Below, one piece after another: positions 1 to 10,519 of a stretch of DNA of 37,455 nucleotides. This DNA is from a virus: UHGV virus genome UHGV-0248180; one strand, 5' to 3'. A program made the position numbers and the translations under genes. Each line of letters opens with the position of its first letter. Positions within the stretch are counted from its first letter, which is position 1. The notes beneath the pieces were generated by a model that did no database searches, was not told the origin of the DNA, and saw only the letters and a program-made list of their open reading frames with translations.

Positions 1-93
1 AGGACCGATAACTTTAATATCATTCACTGTACGACCAAAATCTTCTGAAACACATTTCATAAAGAAGTTGAACAGTTCGCCGTAATTATCCAT
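1..93 (-). repeat. Left arm of a perfect inverted repeat; exact reverse complement of 137..229 (first 31 codons of the downstream ORF), truncated by the window edge
   Basis: Manual reverse-complement of 137..229 matches 1..93 base for base; 43-nt spacer at 94..136. Confidence 0.8.
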
Positions 94-136
94 TCAACTA
101 TCAACTACTGATACAGAAAACAACTTGGAGAATGAA

Positions 137-400
137 ATGGATAATTACGGCGAACTGTTCAACTTCTTTATGAAATGTGTTTCAGAAGATTTTGGTCGTA
201 CAGTGAATGATATTAAAGTTATCGGTCCTGACCATCCGATGTTTGAAACTTATGCAGTAATGGGTAATGAAGACGGTCAGTGGTATACTGTAAAGGTTGT
301 GATTAACATGTTCACTGCTGAAGGTTATGTTAAACTGTCTTCTAAAGTTTACCATGATAACGATGAAATCGCAGAAGAATATTTCAATAATATGAAATAA
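137..400 (+). CDS. hypothetical protein (87 aa)
   Basis: ORF with GGAG Shine-Dalgarno at 127-130; ORF-track start at 125 is a TTG, first ATG is 137. Confidence 0.5.
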   Translation: MDNYGELFNFFMKCVSEDFGRTVNDIKVIGPDHPMFETYAVMGNEDGQWYTVKVVINMFTAEGYVKLSSKVYHDNDEIAEEYFNNMK

Positions 401-469
401 TTGTGTACAAACACCAAGGACGGTGTTATTATAGACTTATCAAAACAAATACAGAAAACGGAGAAATAA

Positions 470-646
470 ATGACTACTTTAATTATTTGGTTTGACGAAA
501 ATGAAGAAACATACTGCGTGAACATTGGCGAAAGCCCAATGCCAGAATTTGAATCTTCAGATAAAAACTCGGTTGTATCTTGGGCTGAAGGTTATAAAGC
601 AGCAAAAGGCGATGTTGAAATAGTTTACAAACTATCCGGAGTATAA
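470..646 (+). CDS. hypothetical small protein (58 aa)
   Basis: ORF below track cutoff, GGAG RBS at 461-464 and ATG at 470. Confidence 0.4.
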   Translation: MTTLIIWFDENEETYCVNIGESPMPEFESSDKNSVVSWAEGYKAAKGDVEIVYKLSGV

Positions 647-689
647 TACTCTCGTGGATTTTAAATCTTAATTAACCTAAGGAAATACT

Positions 690-1283
690 ATGAACACACT
701 GAAGAAAATTGTTGAGTTTATTCGCACTAAACTTGGTTCTGCTATGGCTAAAAATCTATCTATTGAAGAGCAGTATACCGCTGCGGCAGCAAAACTACTT
801 GATAAGATTAAAGACCTAAAAACTGCTTCCGTTAAATCTATTAATGAAGAAAAACGTATTCGTGAACTTATTGTCGAAAAGAATCGACAAGCCGAATCAA
901 AAGAGCGCGAAATTCGCAAGCTTCTTTCCGAAGGTCAAGATGTAACAATGCATGCTAAACTTGGTTTACTATATCGTCGAACAGCTGAGCAGTTGACTAC
1001 TAAAGCTGATGGTTATGCTGAAATGCGAATTGAAATCGCCAAGAAAGTAGTTGAGTTAGATGATGCTCGCCAAGAACTTGCAGTTAAATTGGAATATATC
1101 CGTGAAACTCGTGCTGCGAATGCCCTCGGAATTAGTACTGCTGATGATGTAGTTGAAATTGCAGCACTGACTAAGGTTGATATTGAAGATACTCTTGCTC
1201 GAGTTGAAACCTTTAATGGCAATATTTCTGGGGTTGAAACTACCTCTGCCGATGTTCAGGAATACATTAATTCTCTGAAATAA
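690..1283 (+). CDS. hypothetical protein, predicted alpha-helical/coiled-coil (197 aa)
   Basis: ORF with AAGGAAA RBS; charged heptad-like sequence; followed by hairpin terminator. Confidence 0.6.
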
Positions 1284-1289
1284 TGATAA

Positions 1290-1311
1290 GGGGCTTCGGC
1301 CCCTATTACTT
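1290..1311 (+). terminator. UUCG-tetraloop hairpin (GGGGC-TTCG-GCCCC) followed by T-rich tract
   Basis: Stem-loop read directly from sequence. Confidence 0.6.
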
Positions 1312-1324
1312 GGAGTAAATAGGA

Positions 1325-1930
1325 ATGAAAATGCAAAGTGATTTCAATTCAATGTTTGAAGAGTTCCAAAGACAGGTTGATGTTCCAGATCAATTACTAA
1401 ATGCTCTTAAACGTATGGCAGAAGGACGTAATTACTATTGGGGGTCTTCATATGAAACTGATGAAAGTCTTTCTGGATTTTATAAAGGTAAAAAGTCTTT
1501 AATACGTCCTGGAATACTCATTAAAAGCATTGAATCAATTCATTCATTGACGTGTGATTTTGATGTTGAATTTACTGATTTCATTTCTCCTGAATGGACA
1601 GTTTGTTATTTAAACGACGATTATGATTATCTTGGCGTTTATAGTTTAAGTGACGCATGGTTTAAACGTAATTTACAAAAGTCAAATTTATTTTATATTG
1701 ATACTACGGTAAAATTTCAGGGAAAGAAATATTTCTTTACTCTTATAGTTGATTCTGAAACGAAGCATGAAAATAAACGTATTCTTAGTAAAAAGAATAT
1801 CTTAACTATTGTTGATGATCTTTTTGATAAATTCGTGGAAAATCCCAATTTTGAAAGCGATTTATTACTAGAAAAATTTGTGAAGGAATGCAGAGAATAT
1901 GTCAAAGCCATCAATGTATCTTCCAAGTAA
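1325..1930 (+). CDS. hypothetical protein (201 aa), C-terminal FVKECR tail motif
   Basis: ORF with GGAG RBS at 1312-1315. Confidence 0.6.
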   Translation: MKMQSDFNSMFEEFQRQVDVPDQLLNALKRMAEGRNYYWGSSYETDESLSGFYKGKKSLIRPGILIKSIESIHSLTCDFDVEFTDFISPEWTVCYLNDDYDYLGVYSLSDAWFKRNLQKSNLFYIDTTVKFQGKKYFFTLIVDSETKHENKRILSKKNILTIVDDLFDKFVENPNFESDLLLEKFVKECREYVKAINVSSK

Positions 1931-2291
1931 ACCCTTAAAGTATGAATTAAAGCGTCAGATAATTTCTACTGATGTATTAATAGGTCCTGTTATACTCATA
2001 TCATTTGTAATTCTATTGATTATTGGAGGTGTTTTAGATGTTATGACTGATATTGATTCTGGCGAAATACTTGTATTAATGCTAATTCTTCCATTAATAG
2101 TTCCACTTTTATTAGTACCTGTAAATTGGGTAGGATACTGGTATCAAGGAAGACATTATCGTAAACGCGTACGTGATTGGAAAGCACAGTGTGAAAAGAT
2201 TAAAAAGGAACACCAGCTTAAACTTGCTGCGTATGAATTTGATGAAATTATGAAATTTGTTAAGGAATCACGATGCAAAAGCCAAAACTAA
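1899..2291 (+). CDS. hypothetical membrane protein (130 aa), two predicted TM helices, C-terminal FVKESRCK motif
   Basis: ORF; hydrophobic segments; start uncertain (overlaps upstream gene by 32 nt). Confidence 0.5.
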   Translation: MSKPSMYLPSKPLKYELKRQIISTDVLIGPVILISFVILLIIGGVLDVMTDIDSGEILVLMLILPLIVPLLLVPVNWVGYWYQGRHYRKRVRDWKAQCEKIKKEHQLKLAAYEFDEIMKFVKESRCKSQN

Positions 2292-2647
2292 ATAAAGTCA
2301 AATATTCGCTTCCTGAGTCATTTTTAATTTTTGCTGTGGCGTTGGCTGCAGCTCTTGCTGGTAGTCTTATTGGATTAATGATTGATTGTATTATTTTAAA
2401 CATCCGCAGTAATGTCAGCGGTATAGTAGATATAATAGAAGTTTGGAGTGAACTTCATTATACTATAGCGATTTCATTATTTTCATTCTTTGGTATTATT
2501 TTATATTTTCATTATGATAATTTTAAAATAAATTGGCAAAGAAAAAAGGATTACAAAATACAATTAAAAGAATATAATAACTACATGTCTTATATTGAAA
2601 ATGAATCAATGAAAGAATTCGTGAATGATTGTAGGAAAATCAAATGA
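2273..2647 (+). CDS. hypothetical membrane protein (124 aa), C-terminal FVNDCRK motif
   Basis: ORF; hydrophobic segments; paralogous tail shared with neighbours. Confidence 0.55.
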   Translation: MQKPKLNKVKYSLPESFLIFAVALAAALAGSLIGLMIDCIILNIRSNVSGIVDIIEVWSELHYTIAISLFSFFGIILYFHYDNFKINWQRKKDYKIQLKEYNNYMSYIENESMKEFVNDCRKIK

Positions 2648-3128
2648 TTTTAAAAACTCGCTGGTATGATTTAGATGATGGGGATGATGGCATTTCAGTT
2701 GATAGAGTTGACTGGAATGGCTGTTCCGAAGATATGAAAAATTTGCTGATTAGGGAGTTTAGAATGGGATATCAACCAGTTAAGCCATCTACTGCAACAG
2801 ATGATAAATTCGTGTGTATTCATAATGGTCGCGCTAAATTAACGAACACTGATTGGTTCACAGATAAGATTATGATTCTGTGGTATATTATTAGTTTTCC
2901 TGTGACATCATTTATATTTTGCTTCTTTGGAGAAAGTCCAGTAGACAGAACGGGAGATTGGATTATTTTAACCATACTTGTTAATATTTTTACAGCAGCA
3001 ATATTATCTGGGATATGGTACACGTTCATTGAAATGCCATGGCGTTTACGCAGACAGCAAAAGATTTATGATGAAAAGAAATATGCTCAAAATTTAAATA
3101 GCTTTATCACTGAATGCAGGAAATTAAA

Positions 3129-3132
<4 letters not shown>
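2644..3132 (+). CDS. hypothetical membrane protein (162 aa), C-terminal ITECRK motif
   Basis: ORF; ATGA overlap with upstream gene; hydrophobic segments. Confidence 0.55.
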
Positions 3133-4101
<969 letters not shown>

Positions 4102-4105
4102 AGTT

Positions 4106-4135
4106 GTTTACTTTCTCCTAAAACTGTGATAGTAT
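4106..4135 (+). promoter_or_regulatory. T4 early-type promoter (GTTTAC-N18-TGaTAGTAT)
   Basis: -35-like GTTTAC 4106-4111, extended -10 TGn + TAGTAT 4127-4135. Confidence 0.55.
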
Positions 4136-4172
4136 ATTCACAGTTACTAATTAAAATATTTAAAGGAAACAC

Positions 4173-4490
4173 ATGAAAACGTATAAAGAATTTATTGCAG
4201 AATCTGCTGCAGGACAACGTGTAGAAGGCGGTTATATCTGGATTGAACAAGTTGAGCCGCCAAGTCGCACTTCTACAGGTAAATGGAAAATCACTGTTGA
4301 TGGTCCTGGTGGTAAACGTAGGACTCTTAAAGAAATTAACGGGTACTATGAAGAAGCTCTTTCTGACGCGGGTACTTATATGATGCAAATCATGATTAAA
4401 AACCCAGAAAATCGTTTTGCGGCTAGAGTTTTCCGCCGTATTGGAAATAAGCTTTATGATGCATATTCTAAAAACTTCCCTAAAGAATAA
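4173..4490 (+). CDS. Capsid-targeted internal protein (105 aa) with N-terminal CTS MKTYKEFIAE
   Basis: N-terminal capsid targeting sequence typical of T-even internal proteins; located in the ip locus next to e. Confidence 0.75.
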   Translation: MKTYKEFIAESAAGQRVEGGYIWIEQVEPPSRTSTGKWKITVDGPGGKRRTLKEINGYYEEALSDAGTYMMQIMIKNPENRFAARVFRRIGNKLYDAYSKNFPKE

Positions 4491-4506
4491 AAATTAAAGG
4501 ATACAC

Positions 4507-4980
4507 ATGAAAACATATCAAGAATTTATTACTGAAGCAGCTATTAATTCTCAAATTATTGCTGAATCTTTTACTGATCTTTTGAAATTTAAAAAAGGAC
4601 AGAAAATCACTGCTGTATTGGATGACGGTACAGAAGTTGAGATGGATGTACAAGGATATAATTATGCAGTAGATGGAAAACTGTATAATAAATCTCATGC
4701 TAAATTTGATTCATTTGACGACTTTGTTAATACAGTTGAAGATGAAAAAACTCGTAGATCCATTGCAACGGGTGATGCTAAGGTTCTTATGGCACATGGC
4801 CATGAACGCATTCGCGCTAAGCAGAATAAAATGGGTGAAGATAATTTTGCATTAGTTGGTTATCAATCTGGTAAACAAACTTATGGTTATCAACGTACTG
4901 CTACCATGTATAACAAAAATGGTAAAATTGCCTTTGTGAATAGTAAAGGTTCTATTCAGTACGTCAAATCATTCAAATAA
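4507..4980 (+). CDS. Capsid-targeted internal protein (157 aa) with N-terminal CTS MKTYQEFITE
   Basis: CTS motif; leader and RBS nearly identical to the preceding ip gene. Confidence 0.75.
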   Translation: MKTYQEFITEAAINSQIIAESFTDLLKFKKGQKITAVLDDGTEVEMDVQGYNYAVDGKLYNKSHAKFDSFDDFVNTVEDEKTRRSIATGDAKVLMAHGHERIRAKQNKMGEDNFALVGYQSGKQTYGYQRTATMYNKNGKIAFVNSKGSIQYVKSFK

Positions 4981-5994: not shown

Positions 5995-6357
5995 ATGAAA
6001 GCATATCAAATTCTTGAAGGCACACATAAAGGTACTATTTATTTTGAAGATGGTATTCAAGCACGAATTATTGTCTCTAAAACCTTTAAAGAGGACTCTT
6101 TTGTAGACCCAGAAATTTTCTATGGTTTGCATGCCCGTGAAATTGAAATTGAGCAACAGCCTACAGTTAAAATTGAAGGTGGTCAACACCTGAACGTTAA
6201 CGTTCTGCGTCGCGAAACTCTGGAAGATGCAGTTAAGCATCCGGAAAAATATCCGCAGCTGACCATCCGTGTATCCGGTTATGCAGTTCGCTTTAACTCT
6301 CTGACTCCGGAACAGCAGCGCGACGTTATTGCTCGTACCTTTACTGAGAGTTTGTAA
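5995..6357 (+). CDS. Autonomous glycyl-radical cofactor, GrcA/YfiD-like (120 aa)
   Basis: C-terminal ~65 aa ([60 protein letters not shown]) match E. coli GrcA as I recall it, including glycyl-radical motif RVSGY; codon usage of that segment is host-like. Confidence 0.9.
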
Positions 6358-6578
6358 TGGCAAAGATAATTATTGAAGGTTCTAAAGATGTGCTAAATGC
6401 TTTCGCCGAGTGGTTTAGTAATTCAGGCGAACAGCAATTTAATGAAGCGTGGAACATAGGTGATATTGATGGAATTTATCCTACGACAGAAATTTCTGTT
6501 CAGGGATATGGCATTCATGAACCTATTCGTTTAGTTGAATATGATTTATGTACTGGTGAGGAAGTCAAATATGATTGA
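6357..6578 (+). CDS. hypothetical protein (73 aa)
   Basis: ORF, TAATG overlap with upstream gene. Confidence 0.45.
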   Translation: MAKIIIEGSKDVLNAFAEWFSNSGEQQFNEAWNIGDIDGIYPTTEISVQGYGIHEPIRLVEYDLCTGEEVKYD

Positions 6579-6837
6579 AGATATTAAGGGTTATAAACCA
6601 CATACTGAAGAGAAAATCGGTAAAGTGAATGCTATTAAAGACGCTGAAGTTCGTTTAGGACTTATCTTTGACGCTTTATACGATGAATTCTGGGAAGCAC
6701 TAGATAATTGTGAAGATGATGAACTCGCGAAGAATTATGCTGAAAGCCTCGATCAGTTAACTATTGCTAAAACGAAACTCAAAGAAGCCAGTATGTGGGC
6801 TTGTCGTGCAGTGTTCCAACCAGAGGAAAAATACTAA
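6571..6837 (+). CDS. hypothetical protein (88 aa)
   Basis: ORF with GAGGAA RBS before ATG 6571. Confidence 0.45.
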
Positions 6838-7174: not shown

Positions 7175-7636
7175 ATGACTATCAATACAGAAGTTTTTAT
7201 CCGTCGAAATAAGCTTCGTCGTCACTTTGAGTCGGAGTTTCGTCAAATTAACAATGAGATTCGTGAGGCATCAAAAGCAGCAGGAGTCTCATCGTTTCAT
7301 CTAAAATATTCTCAGCATCTTCTTGATCGTGCAATTCAACGGGAGATTGATGAGACATATGTTTTTGAATTATTCCATAAAATAAAAGACCATGTTTTAG
7401 AAGTTAATGAATTCCTGAGTATGCCTCCACGTCCTGACATTGACGAGGATTTTATTGATGGGGTTGAATATCGTCCTGGGCGTTTGGAAATTACAGATGG
7501 AAATCTTTGGCTTGGATTTACGGTTTGTAAACCTAATGAGAAGTTCAAAAACCCGTCACTTCAATGTAGGATGGCAATTATCAACAGTCGTCGTTTACCA
7601 GGAAAGGCTTCTAAAGCAGTAATTAAAACTCAATGA
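7175..7636 (+). CDS. regB: RegB sequence-specific endoribonuclease (153 aa)
   Basis: Translation matches T4 RegB from memory; own Shine-Dalgarno contains the RegB target GGAG (7164-7167). Confidence 0.92.
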   Translation: MTINTEVFIRRNKLRRHFESEFRQINNEIREASKAAGVSSFHLKYSQHLLDRAIQREIDETYVFELFHKIKDHVLEVNEFLSMPPRPDIDEDFIDGVEYRPGRLEITDGNLWLGFTVCKPNEKFKNPSLQCRMAIINSRRLPGKASKAVIKTQ

Positions 7637-7643
7637 GGTAAGC

Positions 7644-8189
7644 ATGAGAAAAGCACTACTCGCTGGTCTATTGGCCATTTCAATGATGGCACATAGCTCC
7701 GAGCATACTTTCAGTAATGTCCAACTCGATAACATGCGTTACGCGTATCAATTCGGGGAACAATTTTCTAAGGATGGAAAATATAAAACACACAAAAATA
7801 TCCACAAGAGCGGATTAGGTCATATAATGGCTGCTATTTTATGGCAAGAAAGCTCTGGCGGAGTTAATTTAAAATCTAAACCAAAGCATCACGCCTATGG
7901 AATGTTCCAAAATTATTTGCCTACTATGCGAGCAAGAGTTAAGGAACTTGGTTATAATATGACCGATGCTGAAATAAAAAGAATGTTGAATAAACGGTCC
8001 AATTCAGCTTCCTGGGCGTACATTGAACTTTCTTATTGGTTAAATATACATAAGGGCGATATAAGAAAAGCAATATCCTCTTATAATTCGGGATGGAATG
8101 TTAAAGCAGGTTCTAAATATGCTTCTGAAGTCCTAGAAAAGGCTAATTACCTTAAAAATAATAAACTTTTGGAAATAGTAAATGACTAA
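7644..8189 (+). CDS. Secreted lytic transglycosylase-like protein (SLT domain), signal peptide
   Basis: N-terminal signal peptide; SLT motifs ES (ILWQESSGG), GMFQ (GLMQ-like), YNSG (AYNAG-like). Confidence 0.75.
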   Translation: MRKALLAGLLAISMMAHSSEHTFSNVQLDNMRYAYQFGEQFSKDGKYKTHKNIHKSGLGHIMAAILWQESSGGVNLKSKPKHHAYGMFQNYLPTMRARVKELGYNMTDAEIKRMLNKRSNSASWAYIELSYWLNIHKGDIRKAISSYNSGWNVKAGSKYASEVLEKANYLKNNKLLEIVND

Positions 8190-9399: not shown

Positions 9400-9569
9400 A
9401 TAGTTCTGAGTTACAATATGAAGTGTTACGTGAACTTGATAATTTAATTGAACTCGCTGTTAATAAAGGTTTTGCCATTGGAATTGGTCAAAAAGATACT
9501 GATCATTTAACTGTGGAAATATTTAAGCAAAAGCGAATTATTTTAAAACTTTTGGAAATTAATATATGA
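9396..9569 (+). CDS. hypothetical small protein (57 aa)
   Basis: ORF below track cutoff, ATGA overlaps at both ends. Confidence 0.4.
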   Translation: MNSSELQYEVLRELDNLIELAVNKGFAIGIGQKDTDHLTVEIFKQKRIILKLLEINI

Positions 9570-9751
9570 GTTTAAGCAAAGAACAAAAAGACAAACTCTT
9601 TTCTCTTATCCACGAAGTTATGGATAAAAACAGTGAATTGGAAAAAGTTTGTGATGAATGCGGTCCTTTTAATGCAAATGAATACGAAGAACTTTCTAAA
9701 GAATTCGATAATAAAGAACAAGAACTCATTGATTATATAAATTCTTTATGA
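9566..9751 (+). CDS. hypothetical small acidic helical protein (61 aa), member of a small paralog family
   Basis: ORF; shares N-terminal xxEQKxK(L/I)F motif and acidic C-terminus with 9748 ORF. Confidence 0.5.
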   Translation: MSLSKEQKDKLFSLIHEVMDKNSELEKVCDECGPFNANEYEELSKEFDNKEQELIDYINSL

Positions 9752-9936
9752 TTACTCGCGAACAAAAGAACGAAATATTATTTTTAGTTGGTGAAATTAT
9801 TAGTTTAGAAAAGGATTTGTCTTTTGAATTATCTTCTGATTATGGAGATGCCGAAACATATTACGAATTAGTAAAATTTATCGATAAAGCTGAAAATGAT
9901 TTAGAAACATATTTAGAAAATTTAACTAAGGACTAA
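9748..9936 (+). CDS. hypothetical small acidic helical protein (62 aa), paralog of 9566 ORF
   Basis: ORF; ATGA overlap. Confidence 0.5.
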   Translation: MITREQKNEILFLVGEIISLEKDLSFELSSDYGDAETYYELVKFIDKAENDLETYLENLTKD

Positions 9937-9937
9937 A

Positions 9938-10519
9938 ATGGCGAGTTTAATTTTTACTTATGCAGCAATGAATGCTGGAAAATCTGCTTCTCTTTTGACT
10001 GCTGCACATAATTATAAAGAACGCGGAATGGGTGTATTAGTTCTTAAACCTGCTATTGATACTCGCGATTCTGTCTGTGAAGTCGTTTCTCGCATTGGAA
10101 TTAAACAGGAAGCGAATATTATTACGGATGATATGGATATTTTTGAGTTCTATAAATGGGCTGAAGCACAAAAAGATATTCATTGCGTATTTGTAGATGA
10201 AGCTCAGTTTTTAAAAACTGAACAGGTGCACCAATTAAGCCGAATTGTTGATACATATAATGTTCCTGTTATGGCTTATGGATTAAGGACTGATTTCGCT
10301 GGAAAATTGTTTGAAGGTTCTAAAGAACTTTTAGCGATTGCAGATAAACTTATTGAACTAAAGGCAGTTTGTCATTGCGGCAAAAAAGCGATTATGACAG
10401 CTCGATTAATGGAAGATGGAACACCAGTTAAAGAAGGTAATCAAATCTGTATTGGTGATGAAATTTATGTTTCTTTGTGCAGAAAACATTGGAATGAATT
10501 AACTAAAAAGCTTGGTTAG
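9938..10519 (+). CDS. tk: Thymidine kinase (193 aa)
   Basis: P-loop MNAGKS, zinc ribbon CHCGKKA..CRKH; matches T4 Tk from memory. Confidence 0.95.
   Translation: MASLIFTYAAMNAGKSASLLTAAHNYKERGMGVLVLKPAIDTRDSVCEVVSRIGIKQEANIITDDMDIFEFYKWAEAQKDIHCVFVDEAQFLKTEQVHQLSRIVDTYNVPVMAYGLRTDFAGKLFEGSKELLAIADKLIELKAVCHCGKKAIMTARLMEDGTPVKEGNQICIGDEIYVSLCRKHWNELTKKLG

Follow-up and report, generated by a model that had tools for sequence, protein, structure and literature searches.

Four consecutive early genes of T4-like phages, e.5, e.4, e.3 and e.2, encode proteins that end in related short peptides of the general form F-[V/I]-x-x-C-R-K. These genes were studied in the virus genome UHGV-0248180, a stretch of 37,455 nucleotides that is referred to here as the window. 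The peptide is conserved at the protein level across T4-like genera and, with a probability of about 0.5, it serves as a shared C-terminal interaction tag on fast-evolving early accessory proteins, possibly docking to the product of the neighboring gene e.6. By its similarity to known phages, the window is a segment of a Tequatrovirus (T4-like) genome: bases 600-4200 are 98% identical to phage vB_EcoM_G2540, and approximately 500 other T4-like records match at 90-99%. Gene names were assigned via the annotated Shfl2 record and PHROGs, and this comparison identifies the four open reading frames (ORFs) with the motif as the T4 genes e.5, e.4, e.3 and e.2.

The four proteins have already been catalogued in function-unassigned families, namely PHROGs 2607, 2604, 2330 and 2203 together with PF26873 (e.4-type) and PF26896 (e.2-type). 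The Pfam assignments come from precomputed marks on close homologues of e.4 and e.2 (69-93% identical over the full length) and are indirect for the window proteins; direct Pfam and NCBIfam searches of e.5, e.4, e.3 and e.2 gave nothing significant. All of these families are separate, one per gene, and no description of the tail common to the four was found. In the literature on e.2 to e.6 or on a phage PspA, only one sentence was found (PMC7862958). Thus, the catalogued genes and a single remark on the likeness of e.6 to PspA were known, and no description was found of the common tail, its Straboviridae-wide conservation, or its link to the e.6 locus.

The genes of the locus follow each other on the plus strand in the order e.6 (690-1283), e.5 (1325-1930), e.4 (1899-2291), e.3 (2273-2647), e.2 (2644-3132), nudE (3129-3569) and the lysozyme gene e (3607-4101). 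The four genes of interest and their tails are as follows, with transmembrane (TM) helices numbered from the N-terminus and the Shine-Dalgarno (SD) sequence of the next gene given for each tail.

1325..1930, plus strand: e.5, 201 residues, soluble, no TM helix, motif 11 residues from the C-terminus; phrog_2607, E=1.9e-107
1877..1906, plus strand: e.5 tail motif FVKECREYVK, containing the SD sequence AAGGAA (1883-1888) and the start codon ATG of e.4 (1899)
1899..2291, plus strand: e.4, 130 residues, TM1 at residues 31-49 (1989-2045), TM2 at residues 57-75 (2067-2123), 55-residue K/R-rich tail; phrog_2604
2256..2279, plus strand: variant e.4 tail motif FVKESRCK (Cys at +6 instead of +4), containing the SD sequence AAGGAA (2262-2267) and the start codon ATG of e.3 (2273)
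2273..2647, plus strand: e.3, 124 residues, TM1 at residues 17-35 (2321-2377), TM2 at residues 61-79 (2453-2509), 45-residue basic tail; phrog_2330
2618..2644, plus strand: e.3 tail motif FVNDCRKIK, whose R-K codons AGGAAA (2633-2638) are the SD sequence for e.2 (ATG 2644); ATGA overlap at 2644-2647
2644..3132, plus strand: e.2, 162 residues, 75-residue acidic N-terminal domain, TM1 at residues 76-94 (2869-2925), TM2 at residues 106-129 (2959-3030), 38-residue basic tail; phrog_2203
3103..3129, plus strand: e.2 tail motif FITECRKLK, with AGGAAA (3118-3123) as the SD sequence for nudE (ATG 3129); ATGA overlap at 3129-3132

The original prediction, made from the letters of the window, had quoted four related tails at the ends of consecutive ORFs, and all of them were found as quoted: e.5 terminates in EKFVKECREYVKAINVSSK, e.4 in MKFVKESRCKSQN and e.3 in KEFVNDCRKIK, and the string GAATGCAGGAAATTAAAATGA is located at 3112-3132, at the end of e.2. 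It had also described the carriers as small membrane proteins, three of them with two TM helices. Hydropathy confirms the two helices in e.4, e.3 and e.2 and gives zero for e.5, to which the description does not apply. A further claim, that the nucleotides of the motif supply the ribosome-binding site and the start of the next gene, holds at all four junctions in the window, where the SD sequence and the ATG lie in or just after the motif codons. The e.5 and e.4 genes overlap by 32 nucleotides, and e.4 and e.3 by 19 nucleotides.

The similarity of the tails goes beyond the product of AT-rich composition. Given the composition of the individual proteins, F[IV]x[DE][CS]R is expected within the last 20 residues with a probability of 2e-5 to 9e-5 per protein and approximately 8e-18 jointly, values that are indicative only because the pattern was defined post hoc. 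When the window and nine related loci were translated in all six frames, [FWY][IV]xxC[RK] lay within 20 residues of a coding-strand stop in 27 cases and elsewhere in 4, which is a 56-fold enrichment (Fisher p=1.6e-22). Among 258 T4 tails, a matrix trained without Tequatrovirus gave its three highest scores to e.2 (the best, at 28.3 bits), e.5 and e.3, and it gave no internal site above 7 bits among 41,969 positions. In the whole T4 genome, the C-terminal motif matches only e.5, e.3, e.2 and thymidine kinase. Thymidine kinase (window 10466-10483) was considered as a fifth carrier and dropped, as the match falls within the conserved C-terminal region of tk itself and represents background.

Conservation was followed with e.6 as the anchor. 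Loci from eight further genera were fetched with approximately 4.5 kb on either side of e.6, so that nine genera, including that of the window, could be compared; there is one locus per genus, and carrier counts are illustrative. Except at the RB43 locus, the motif is found at the end of the protein encoded after e.6 and of several small proteins nearby. Tails of the e.5 type read FIMECREYVK in Mosigvirus and FIAECREYAK in Dhakavirus, and elsewhere FVDQCRANIK, FIKYCRKRVQK, FIKECRYEL, FINYCRGQ and YIMQCRKKL; further carriers in the sampled loci end in FIKECRK, WIRSCRK, FIAKCRAK, FITYCRGNK and FISKCRTKR. The eight-genus alignment of e.5 homologues, which are 15-46% identical, leaves only M1, P62, C189 and R190 invariant. 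Among e.2 homologues, the motif is invariant down to 37% identity, with Cys and Arg kept, and Dhakavirus homologues at 32-48% identity retain FIEECRK. Orthologues of e.3 and e.4 also retain the motif at 34-53% identity. The e.4 lineage is more variable, with tails such as FVKEIRCK, FIKEVRRK and FIKNVRRK; in this lineage and in several other carriers (also YIKAKRK and WIKEMK), position +4 is S, I, V, M or K and the frame F-[IV]-x-x-.-R is kept. Read across all of these sequences, the consensus is hydrophobic-x-x-[F/Y/W]-[I/V]-x-x-C-R-[K/R/G]. The comparison of copy number that had been proposed as a check showed that carriers vary between genera, from one in Aeromonas phage 65 to at least six in Enterobacter phage AS6. 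Two other searches had a narrower reach: an exhaustive phmmer search with e.5 gave 6 matches and no view of the wider family, and a scan of viral contigs with e.3 returned four loci.

The proteins that bear the tail do not form a single family. The profiles of e.4 and e.3 can be aligned along their entire length (1-126 against 1-122, hhalign E=5e-6, Prob 86%), with the two tail motifs opposite each other; the N-termini are alike (MSKPS… and MQKPK…), and e.3 also weakly matches the e.4 family phrog_2604. These two genes are probably full-length tandem paralogues. The alignment of e.3 with e.2 is confined to 14-15 tail residues, even when Dhakavirus homologues are added, profile comparison of e.4 with e.2 gave no match, and e.5 and e.4 share 11 tail residues at a nonsignificant E=0.1. 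Pairwise BLAST among the four was marginal. The idea of one paralogous family produced by tandem duplication therefore stands for e.4 and e.3 and fails for e.2 and e.5, which match in the tail only. Since only e.4 and e.3 align beyond it, the tail is a module on proteins that are otherwise unrelated or have diverged beyond recognition.

What many carriers do have in common is their architecture. A two-TM hairpin followed by a basic C-terminal tail is present in e.4, e.3 and e.2 and in many carriers of other genera, and is absent from e.5; such likeness alone is no proof of common descent. Most carriers are hairpin proteins of 84-131 residues, with 0-2 K/R in the loop and 9-14 K/R in a C-terminal tail of 33-56 residues that has the motif at its end, so the suggested topology prediction did yield hairpins with a short loop and then a long K/R-rich tail. 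According to the positive-inside rule, K/R-rich segments are cytoplasmic. On this basis, the hairpin tails are predicted to be cytoplasmic and the short loops periplasmic. With the aromatic residue as position 0, the other conserved positions are -3 (hydrophobic), +1 (I/V), +4 (Cys) and +5 (Arg), and all five fit one face of a helix. In the AlphaFold2 (AF2) model of e.4 (pLDDT 64), there are helices at 24-49 and 54-127, and the motif lies inside a continuous helix from TM2 to 127; the single-sequence model of e.5 places it in a terminal helix at 178-198, with a pLDDT of 40 that makes it unreliable. These models, of medium and low confidence, suggest that the motif is helical and sits at the end of an alpha-helix.

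Because motif and translation signals share nucleotides, it might be supposed that the tail is a by-product of tandem duplication and dual coding, in which the SD sequence and start of the next gene freeze the peptide. Every motif in the window contains or abuts AAGGAA or AGGAAA 5-10 nucleotides before the next ATG, the paralogues e.4 and e.3 have similar heads so that a whole junction is repeated, and the junction DNAs of e.5/e.4 and e.4/e.3 align. Across genera, however, the codons are free. In a set of 26 motif instances, F is encoded by TTT (12) and TTC (9), I/V by ATT (15), ATA (5), ATC (3), GTG (2) and GTC (1), C by TGT (16) and TGC (10), and R by AGA (8), AGG (5), CGA (5), CGT (4) and CGC (3), so that both the AGR and the CGN families are used. 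The two middle positions, which could hold an SD site, are the variable ones, with AAG-GAA in just 3 of the 26. The SD sequence also moves while the peptide stays constant: it falls on the R-K codons (AGGAAA) in e.3 of the window and on the K-E codons (AAGGAA) in e.3 of the Mosigvirus phage mogra, whose tail is FIKECRK, and both proteins have F-[IV]-x-[DE]-C-R-K. Moreover, the motif is kept where the next gene begins 29-30 nucleotides past the stop, as in Roth16 (7386-7694, before lysozyme) and AS6 (6325-6732), and it occurs on e.2 and e.5, which are not detectable paralogues of e.3 and e.4. Among seven Tequatrovirus sequences, synonymous variation in the last 16 codons is low in e.5 (1/15) and e.4 (0/14) compared with about 25% in the gene bodies, and normal in the tails of e.3 and e.2. 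The free synonymous codons, the shifting SD sequence, the motif without overlap and the invariant Cys and Arg in divergent e.5 and e.2 proteins point to selection on the peptide. Comparison of these sequences thus indicates that the motif is conserved at the protein level and is not a by-product of ribosome binding. Dual coding as the main cause is largely refuted and is given little credence. The overlap with the next ribosome-binding site and start is real in the window and is a secondary constraint. The coupling constraint that was originally put forward accordingly fails as the main cause of the motif and survives locally, in the e.5 and e.4 tails inside the 32- and 19-nucleotide overlaps. 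In this respect the locus resembles other coupled overlapping early genes of T4, with ATGA at e.3/e.2 and e.2/nudE, SD sequences inside the upstream coding sequence, and locally suppressed synonymous change; such coupling accounts at most for the R-K or K-E codons and not for the conserved F, I/V, C and R.

The repeated tail DNA could also be regarded mainly as a recombination joint or cassette boundary that allows genes to be shuffled in frame, with a functionless peptide. Products of such shuffling exist. In contig IMGVR_UViG_2974787500_000001 (643-1258 and 1601-2400), e.3 ends in FVIDCRKLK and runs directly into nudE, and e.2 is exactly deleted in frame, evidently by a crossover in TGCAGGAAA, which is common to the e.3 and e.2 tails; e.5 of this contig is frameshifted into pieces of 145 and 92 residues. 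Phages that lack e.2 are common, with about 448 records of Tequatrovirus-type e.2 against about 499 of e.3 (about 10% fewer). Hybrid genes are found as well: Escherichia phage vB_EcoM-UFV05 has lost e.3 and encodes a 106-residue in-frame hybrid, in which residues 1-31 of e.4 continue, from a junction within TM1 (…GPV|TSF…), as the second half of e.2. This crossover, however, lies within TM1 and not in the tail. In addition, the shared DNA identity is short (about 9-13 nucleotides) and disappears from one genus to another although the amino acids stay, and selection for a joint would conserve nucleotides rather than residues. For this reason recombination is taken as a consequence of the repeat and not its purpose, and a purely DNA-level role is quite improbable, even when the change in carrier number between genera is counted in its favor. 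These junctions nevertheless show the repeated tail DNA acting as a site of recombination at which reading frame, tag and coupling to the following gene are all maintained. T4-type hyperplastic regions are known for modular gene shuffling via repeated boundary sequences (promoter-early stem-loops). As in those regions, recombination at short repeats between genes adds and removes small accessory genes here, and a crossover from tail to tail removed e.2. The difference is that the repeat is coding and conserved as protein, not an intergenic promoter stem-loop, and its products stay in frame with the tag kept.

The Cys-Arg pair might instead be a catalytic, redox or metal site, for example for sulfur transfer, or the tail might be a modification site or degron, with arginine ADP-ribosylation by T4 Alt/ModA/ModB or a C-terminal degron as candidates. 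Conservation is indeed highest at Cys and Arg, which do not vary within the e.5 and e.2 families, some e.3/e.4 homologues are named 'sulfurtransferase' at NCBI, and T4 encodes the Arg-specific ADP-ribosyltransferases Alt, ModA and ModB. These points have to be set against the lack of a rhodanese or other enzyme domain in Pfam and NCBIfam, against the replacements at +4 in the e.4 lineage and other carriers, and against the position of the motif in a predicted helix at the extreme end of unrelated proteins. A sulfurtransferase or rhodanese identity was rejected, as there was no rhodanese match in these databases and the Cys at +4 is replaceable. As it is replaced while F-[IV]-x-x-.-R is kept, position +4 seems to be a buried packing residue of the helix face rather than an essential nucleophile. 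A site of this kind is unlikely, although it fares somewhat better than the two DNA-level explanations. A prohead-protease site, with the pattern I/L-x-E, was also considered as the function of the motif and rejected, as Glu is present at +3 in just 10 of the 26 instances.

The interaction tag is therefore the preferred explanation, and it can be outlined as follows. The carriers are a changeable early set encoded just downstream of e.6, comprising the soluble e.5 family, the two-TM proteins e.4, e.3 and e.2 with analogous small proteins, and a few other soluble proteins. Through a common tag, otherwise unrelated proteins would bind a single partner or each other where the inner membrane faces the cytoplasm. 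The favored partner would be e.6, a reported homologue of PspA in the phage-shock (Psp)/ESCRT-III superfamily, and the hairpin proteins would act like PspB/PspC, LiaI or PspM in tethering or regulating PspA. The repeated tail DNA doubles as a site at which unequal recombination deletes entire genes or fuses them in frame. It is synteny, together with the analogy to the Psp system, that points to e.6 as the partner.

The gene e.6 is the conserved upstream neighbor of the cluster. It is present in 1107 phage records across T4-like genera, with 87% identity between Tequatrovirus and Mosigvirus. Carriers are close to it in eight of the nine genera sampled, with an e.5-type gene immediately downstream, and the Bragavirus locus has three further carriers upstream of e.6. 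The gene itself, and a feature that follows it, are listed below.

690..1283, plus strand: e.6, a 197-residue coiled-coil protein; phrog_1203, E=1.7e-87
1289..1304, plus strand: GC-rich hairpin AGGGGCTTCGGCCCCT, GGGGC-UUCG-GCCCC, read from the sequence between e.6 and e.5

In a genome announcement, a homologue of e.6 was reported to align with E. coli PspA (4WHE_A) at an HHpred probability of 99.9% (PMC7862958). According to a survey with no coverage of viruses (PMC11237479), PspA homologues as a rule have small TM partners that are specific to a lineage, including PspB, PspC, LiaI and the two-TM PspM. PspA-like proteins encoded by phages seem to have received essentially no study. In proteobacteria (PspB/PspC), Firmicutes (LiaI/LiaF) and actinobacteria (PspM), the small membrane proteins beside PspA engage it through cytoplasmic segments (PMC11237479). 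The phage locus is similar in that two-TM hairpins of 84-162 residues with predicted cytoplasmic tails stand beside e.6, a putative PspA homologue, in eight of nine genera. It differs in that there is no sequence match to the partner families (none for PspB, PspC or LiaI-LiaF-TM in Pfam/NCBIfam with e.5, e.4, e.3 and e.2 at E<=0.1-1), that there are several carriers per genome, that the soluble e.5 has the same tail, that the system is viral, and that binding to e.6 is putative. The suggestion that these proteins take part in envelope remodelling fits a conserved neighbor of this kind.

Several observations weigh against the tag or against its link to e.6. The comparison of the e.6 profile with PDB gave weak collinear matches to Vipp1/sll0617 over residues 4-140 (E=0.14-0.35, up to 1.4), hhalign against a Vipp1 segment gave E=0.003 at a Prob of 10%, and nine e.6 homologues did not match Pfam PspA_IM30 at E<=1; the analysis thus lends the PspA likeness little support of its own. 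The tie between tag and e.6 is one of synteny, and the RB43 locus contains an e.6 homologue with no carrier within 4.5 kb, which speaks against a strict dependence on e.6. Single loci stand for whole genera, the structure models are of low and medium confidence, and the suppressed synonymous change in the e.5 and e.4 tails indicates that a nucleotide constraint contributes locally within Tequatrovirus. Individual carriers are also dispensable, as shown by the phages that lack e.2 and by frameshifted genes. In the T4 reference OZ035787.1, a one-base deletion in an A-run (window ~2929-2935, e.2 codon ~97) changes IKNPMD to IKIQWTE-stop and splits e.2 after TM1 into an N-terminal ORF of 102 residues and a second piece further downstream, which retains the FITECRKLK end. 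Yersinia phage fPS-2 and other phages share this truncation, and several phages of the LH2 type have a frameshifted e.3 without the tail.

A more far-reaching and rather doubtful extension of the tag explanation is that T4-like phages encode their own Psp-like module for membrane maintenance or remodelling. It would consist of a polymer of the PspA/ESCRT-III superfamily (e.6) and interchangeable, rapidly evolving adaptors (e.4, e.3, e.2 and e.5) that are recognized via [F/Y]-[I/V]-x-x-C-R-[K/R] and whose number is varied by recombination at the tag repeats. If true, such a module would mirror in viruses the docking-motif logic of ESCRT-III, where MIM motifs of the subunits bind MIT domains. 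A MIM motif is likewise a C-terminal helical peptide of about 10 residues with key residues on one face, present on several different proteins of one pathway. There is, however, no sequence resemblance, the carriers described here are not ESCRT-III or PspA proteins, the motif matrix gives no score to the e.6 tail, and the receptor is putative.

The tail of e.6 itself (…EYINSLK) was considered as a mimic of the motif; a resemblance was seen, and the candidate was dropped because the matrix does not rank this tail. The ORF at 125-400 and e.6 have similar ends (…EEYFNNMK and …QEYINSLK) that come from a 25-nucleotide direct repeat with 76% identity (window 377-401 and 1260-1284), and the small ORFs 9566-9751 and 9748-9936 upstream of tk end in …IDYINSL and …ETYLENLTKD. 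Such ends may be another recurring C-terminal helix motif or a chance product of AT-rich DNA. As for the hairpin between e.6 and e.5, a scan for terminator-like structures detects it on the minus strand only; in phage mogra, too, a hairpin occupies this position. The structure could keep the level of e.6 above that of the downstream genes or stabilize the e.6 message.

A second tandem family occurs in related loci. It consists of small soluble proteins ending in W-[V/I]-S-S-S-x-x-C, with Cys as the last residue, in Mosig-, Dhaka-, Kanagawa-, Karam- and Tegunavirus, and its gene junctions read TGCTAAGGAAnnnnnATG. The family is not present in the window, and Pfam gave no match for it or for the small ORFs upstream of e.6. 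Its positions in the fetched loci, and the gene downstream of e.2 in the window, are as follows.

L002 (mogra), 3857-4651: W-[V/I]-S-S-S-x-x-C family
L005, 6019-6810: the same family
L006, 6210-7288: the same family
L009, 5799-6325: the same family
L010, 6059-6800: the same family
Window, 3129..3569, plus strand: nudE, a Nudix hydrolase (PF00293, E=9.6e-14; phrog_1185), directly downstream of e.2 and coupled to it, without the motif

Database names in this region should be read with care. Besides the several e.3/e.4 homologues called 'sulfurtransferase' at NCBI, one e.3 homologue (P0027) is called 'DNA primase' and e.6 homologues are called 'host specificity protein'; with no domain support, these names look like propagated misannotations. 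At the left end of the window, a perfect 94-nucleotide inverted repeat spans 1-229 (arms 1-94 and 136-229, spacer of 41 nucleotides) and includes the beginning of the ORF at 125-400. In 527 of 527 related phage records, similarity to window 1-420 starts at base 92-95, so bases 1-94 are a fold-back assembly artefact and not phage sequence. ARAGORN found zero tRNA genes in the whole window of 37 kb (1-37455), unlike several related T4-like genera, which have tRNA genes a few kb upstream of e.6. A promoter scan gave nothing above chance.

The genes e.2 to e.6 are among the many function-unassigned early genes of T4, and the common tail turns four hypothetical proteins into one testable unit with a tag, a topology and a putatively PspA-like neighbor. 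The locus is also an example of how protein-level and RNA-level constraints can be separated in overlapping genes, and of how a coding repeat can drive the in-frame gain and loss of whole genes. Phages with the cluster infect Escherichia, Klebsiella, Enterobacter, Yersinia, Kosakonia, Shigella and Aeromonas. Docking of the tag to e.6 would mean that T4-like phages possess a phage-shock-type membrane system of their own, with exchangeable adaptors. If true, this would bear on the way in which the inner membrane stays energized until lysis by a lytic phage.

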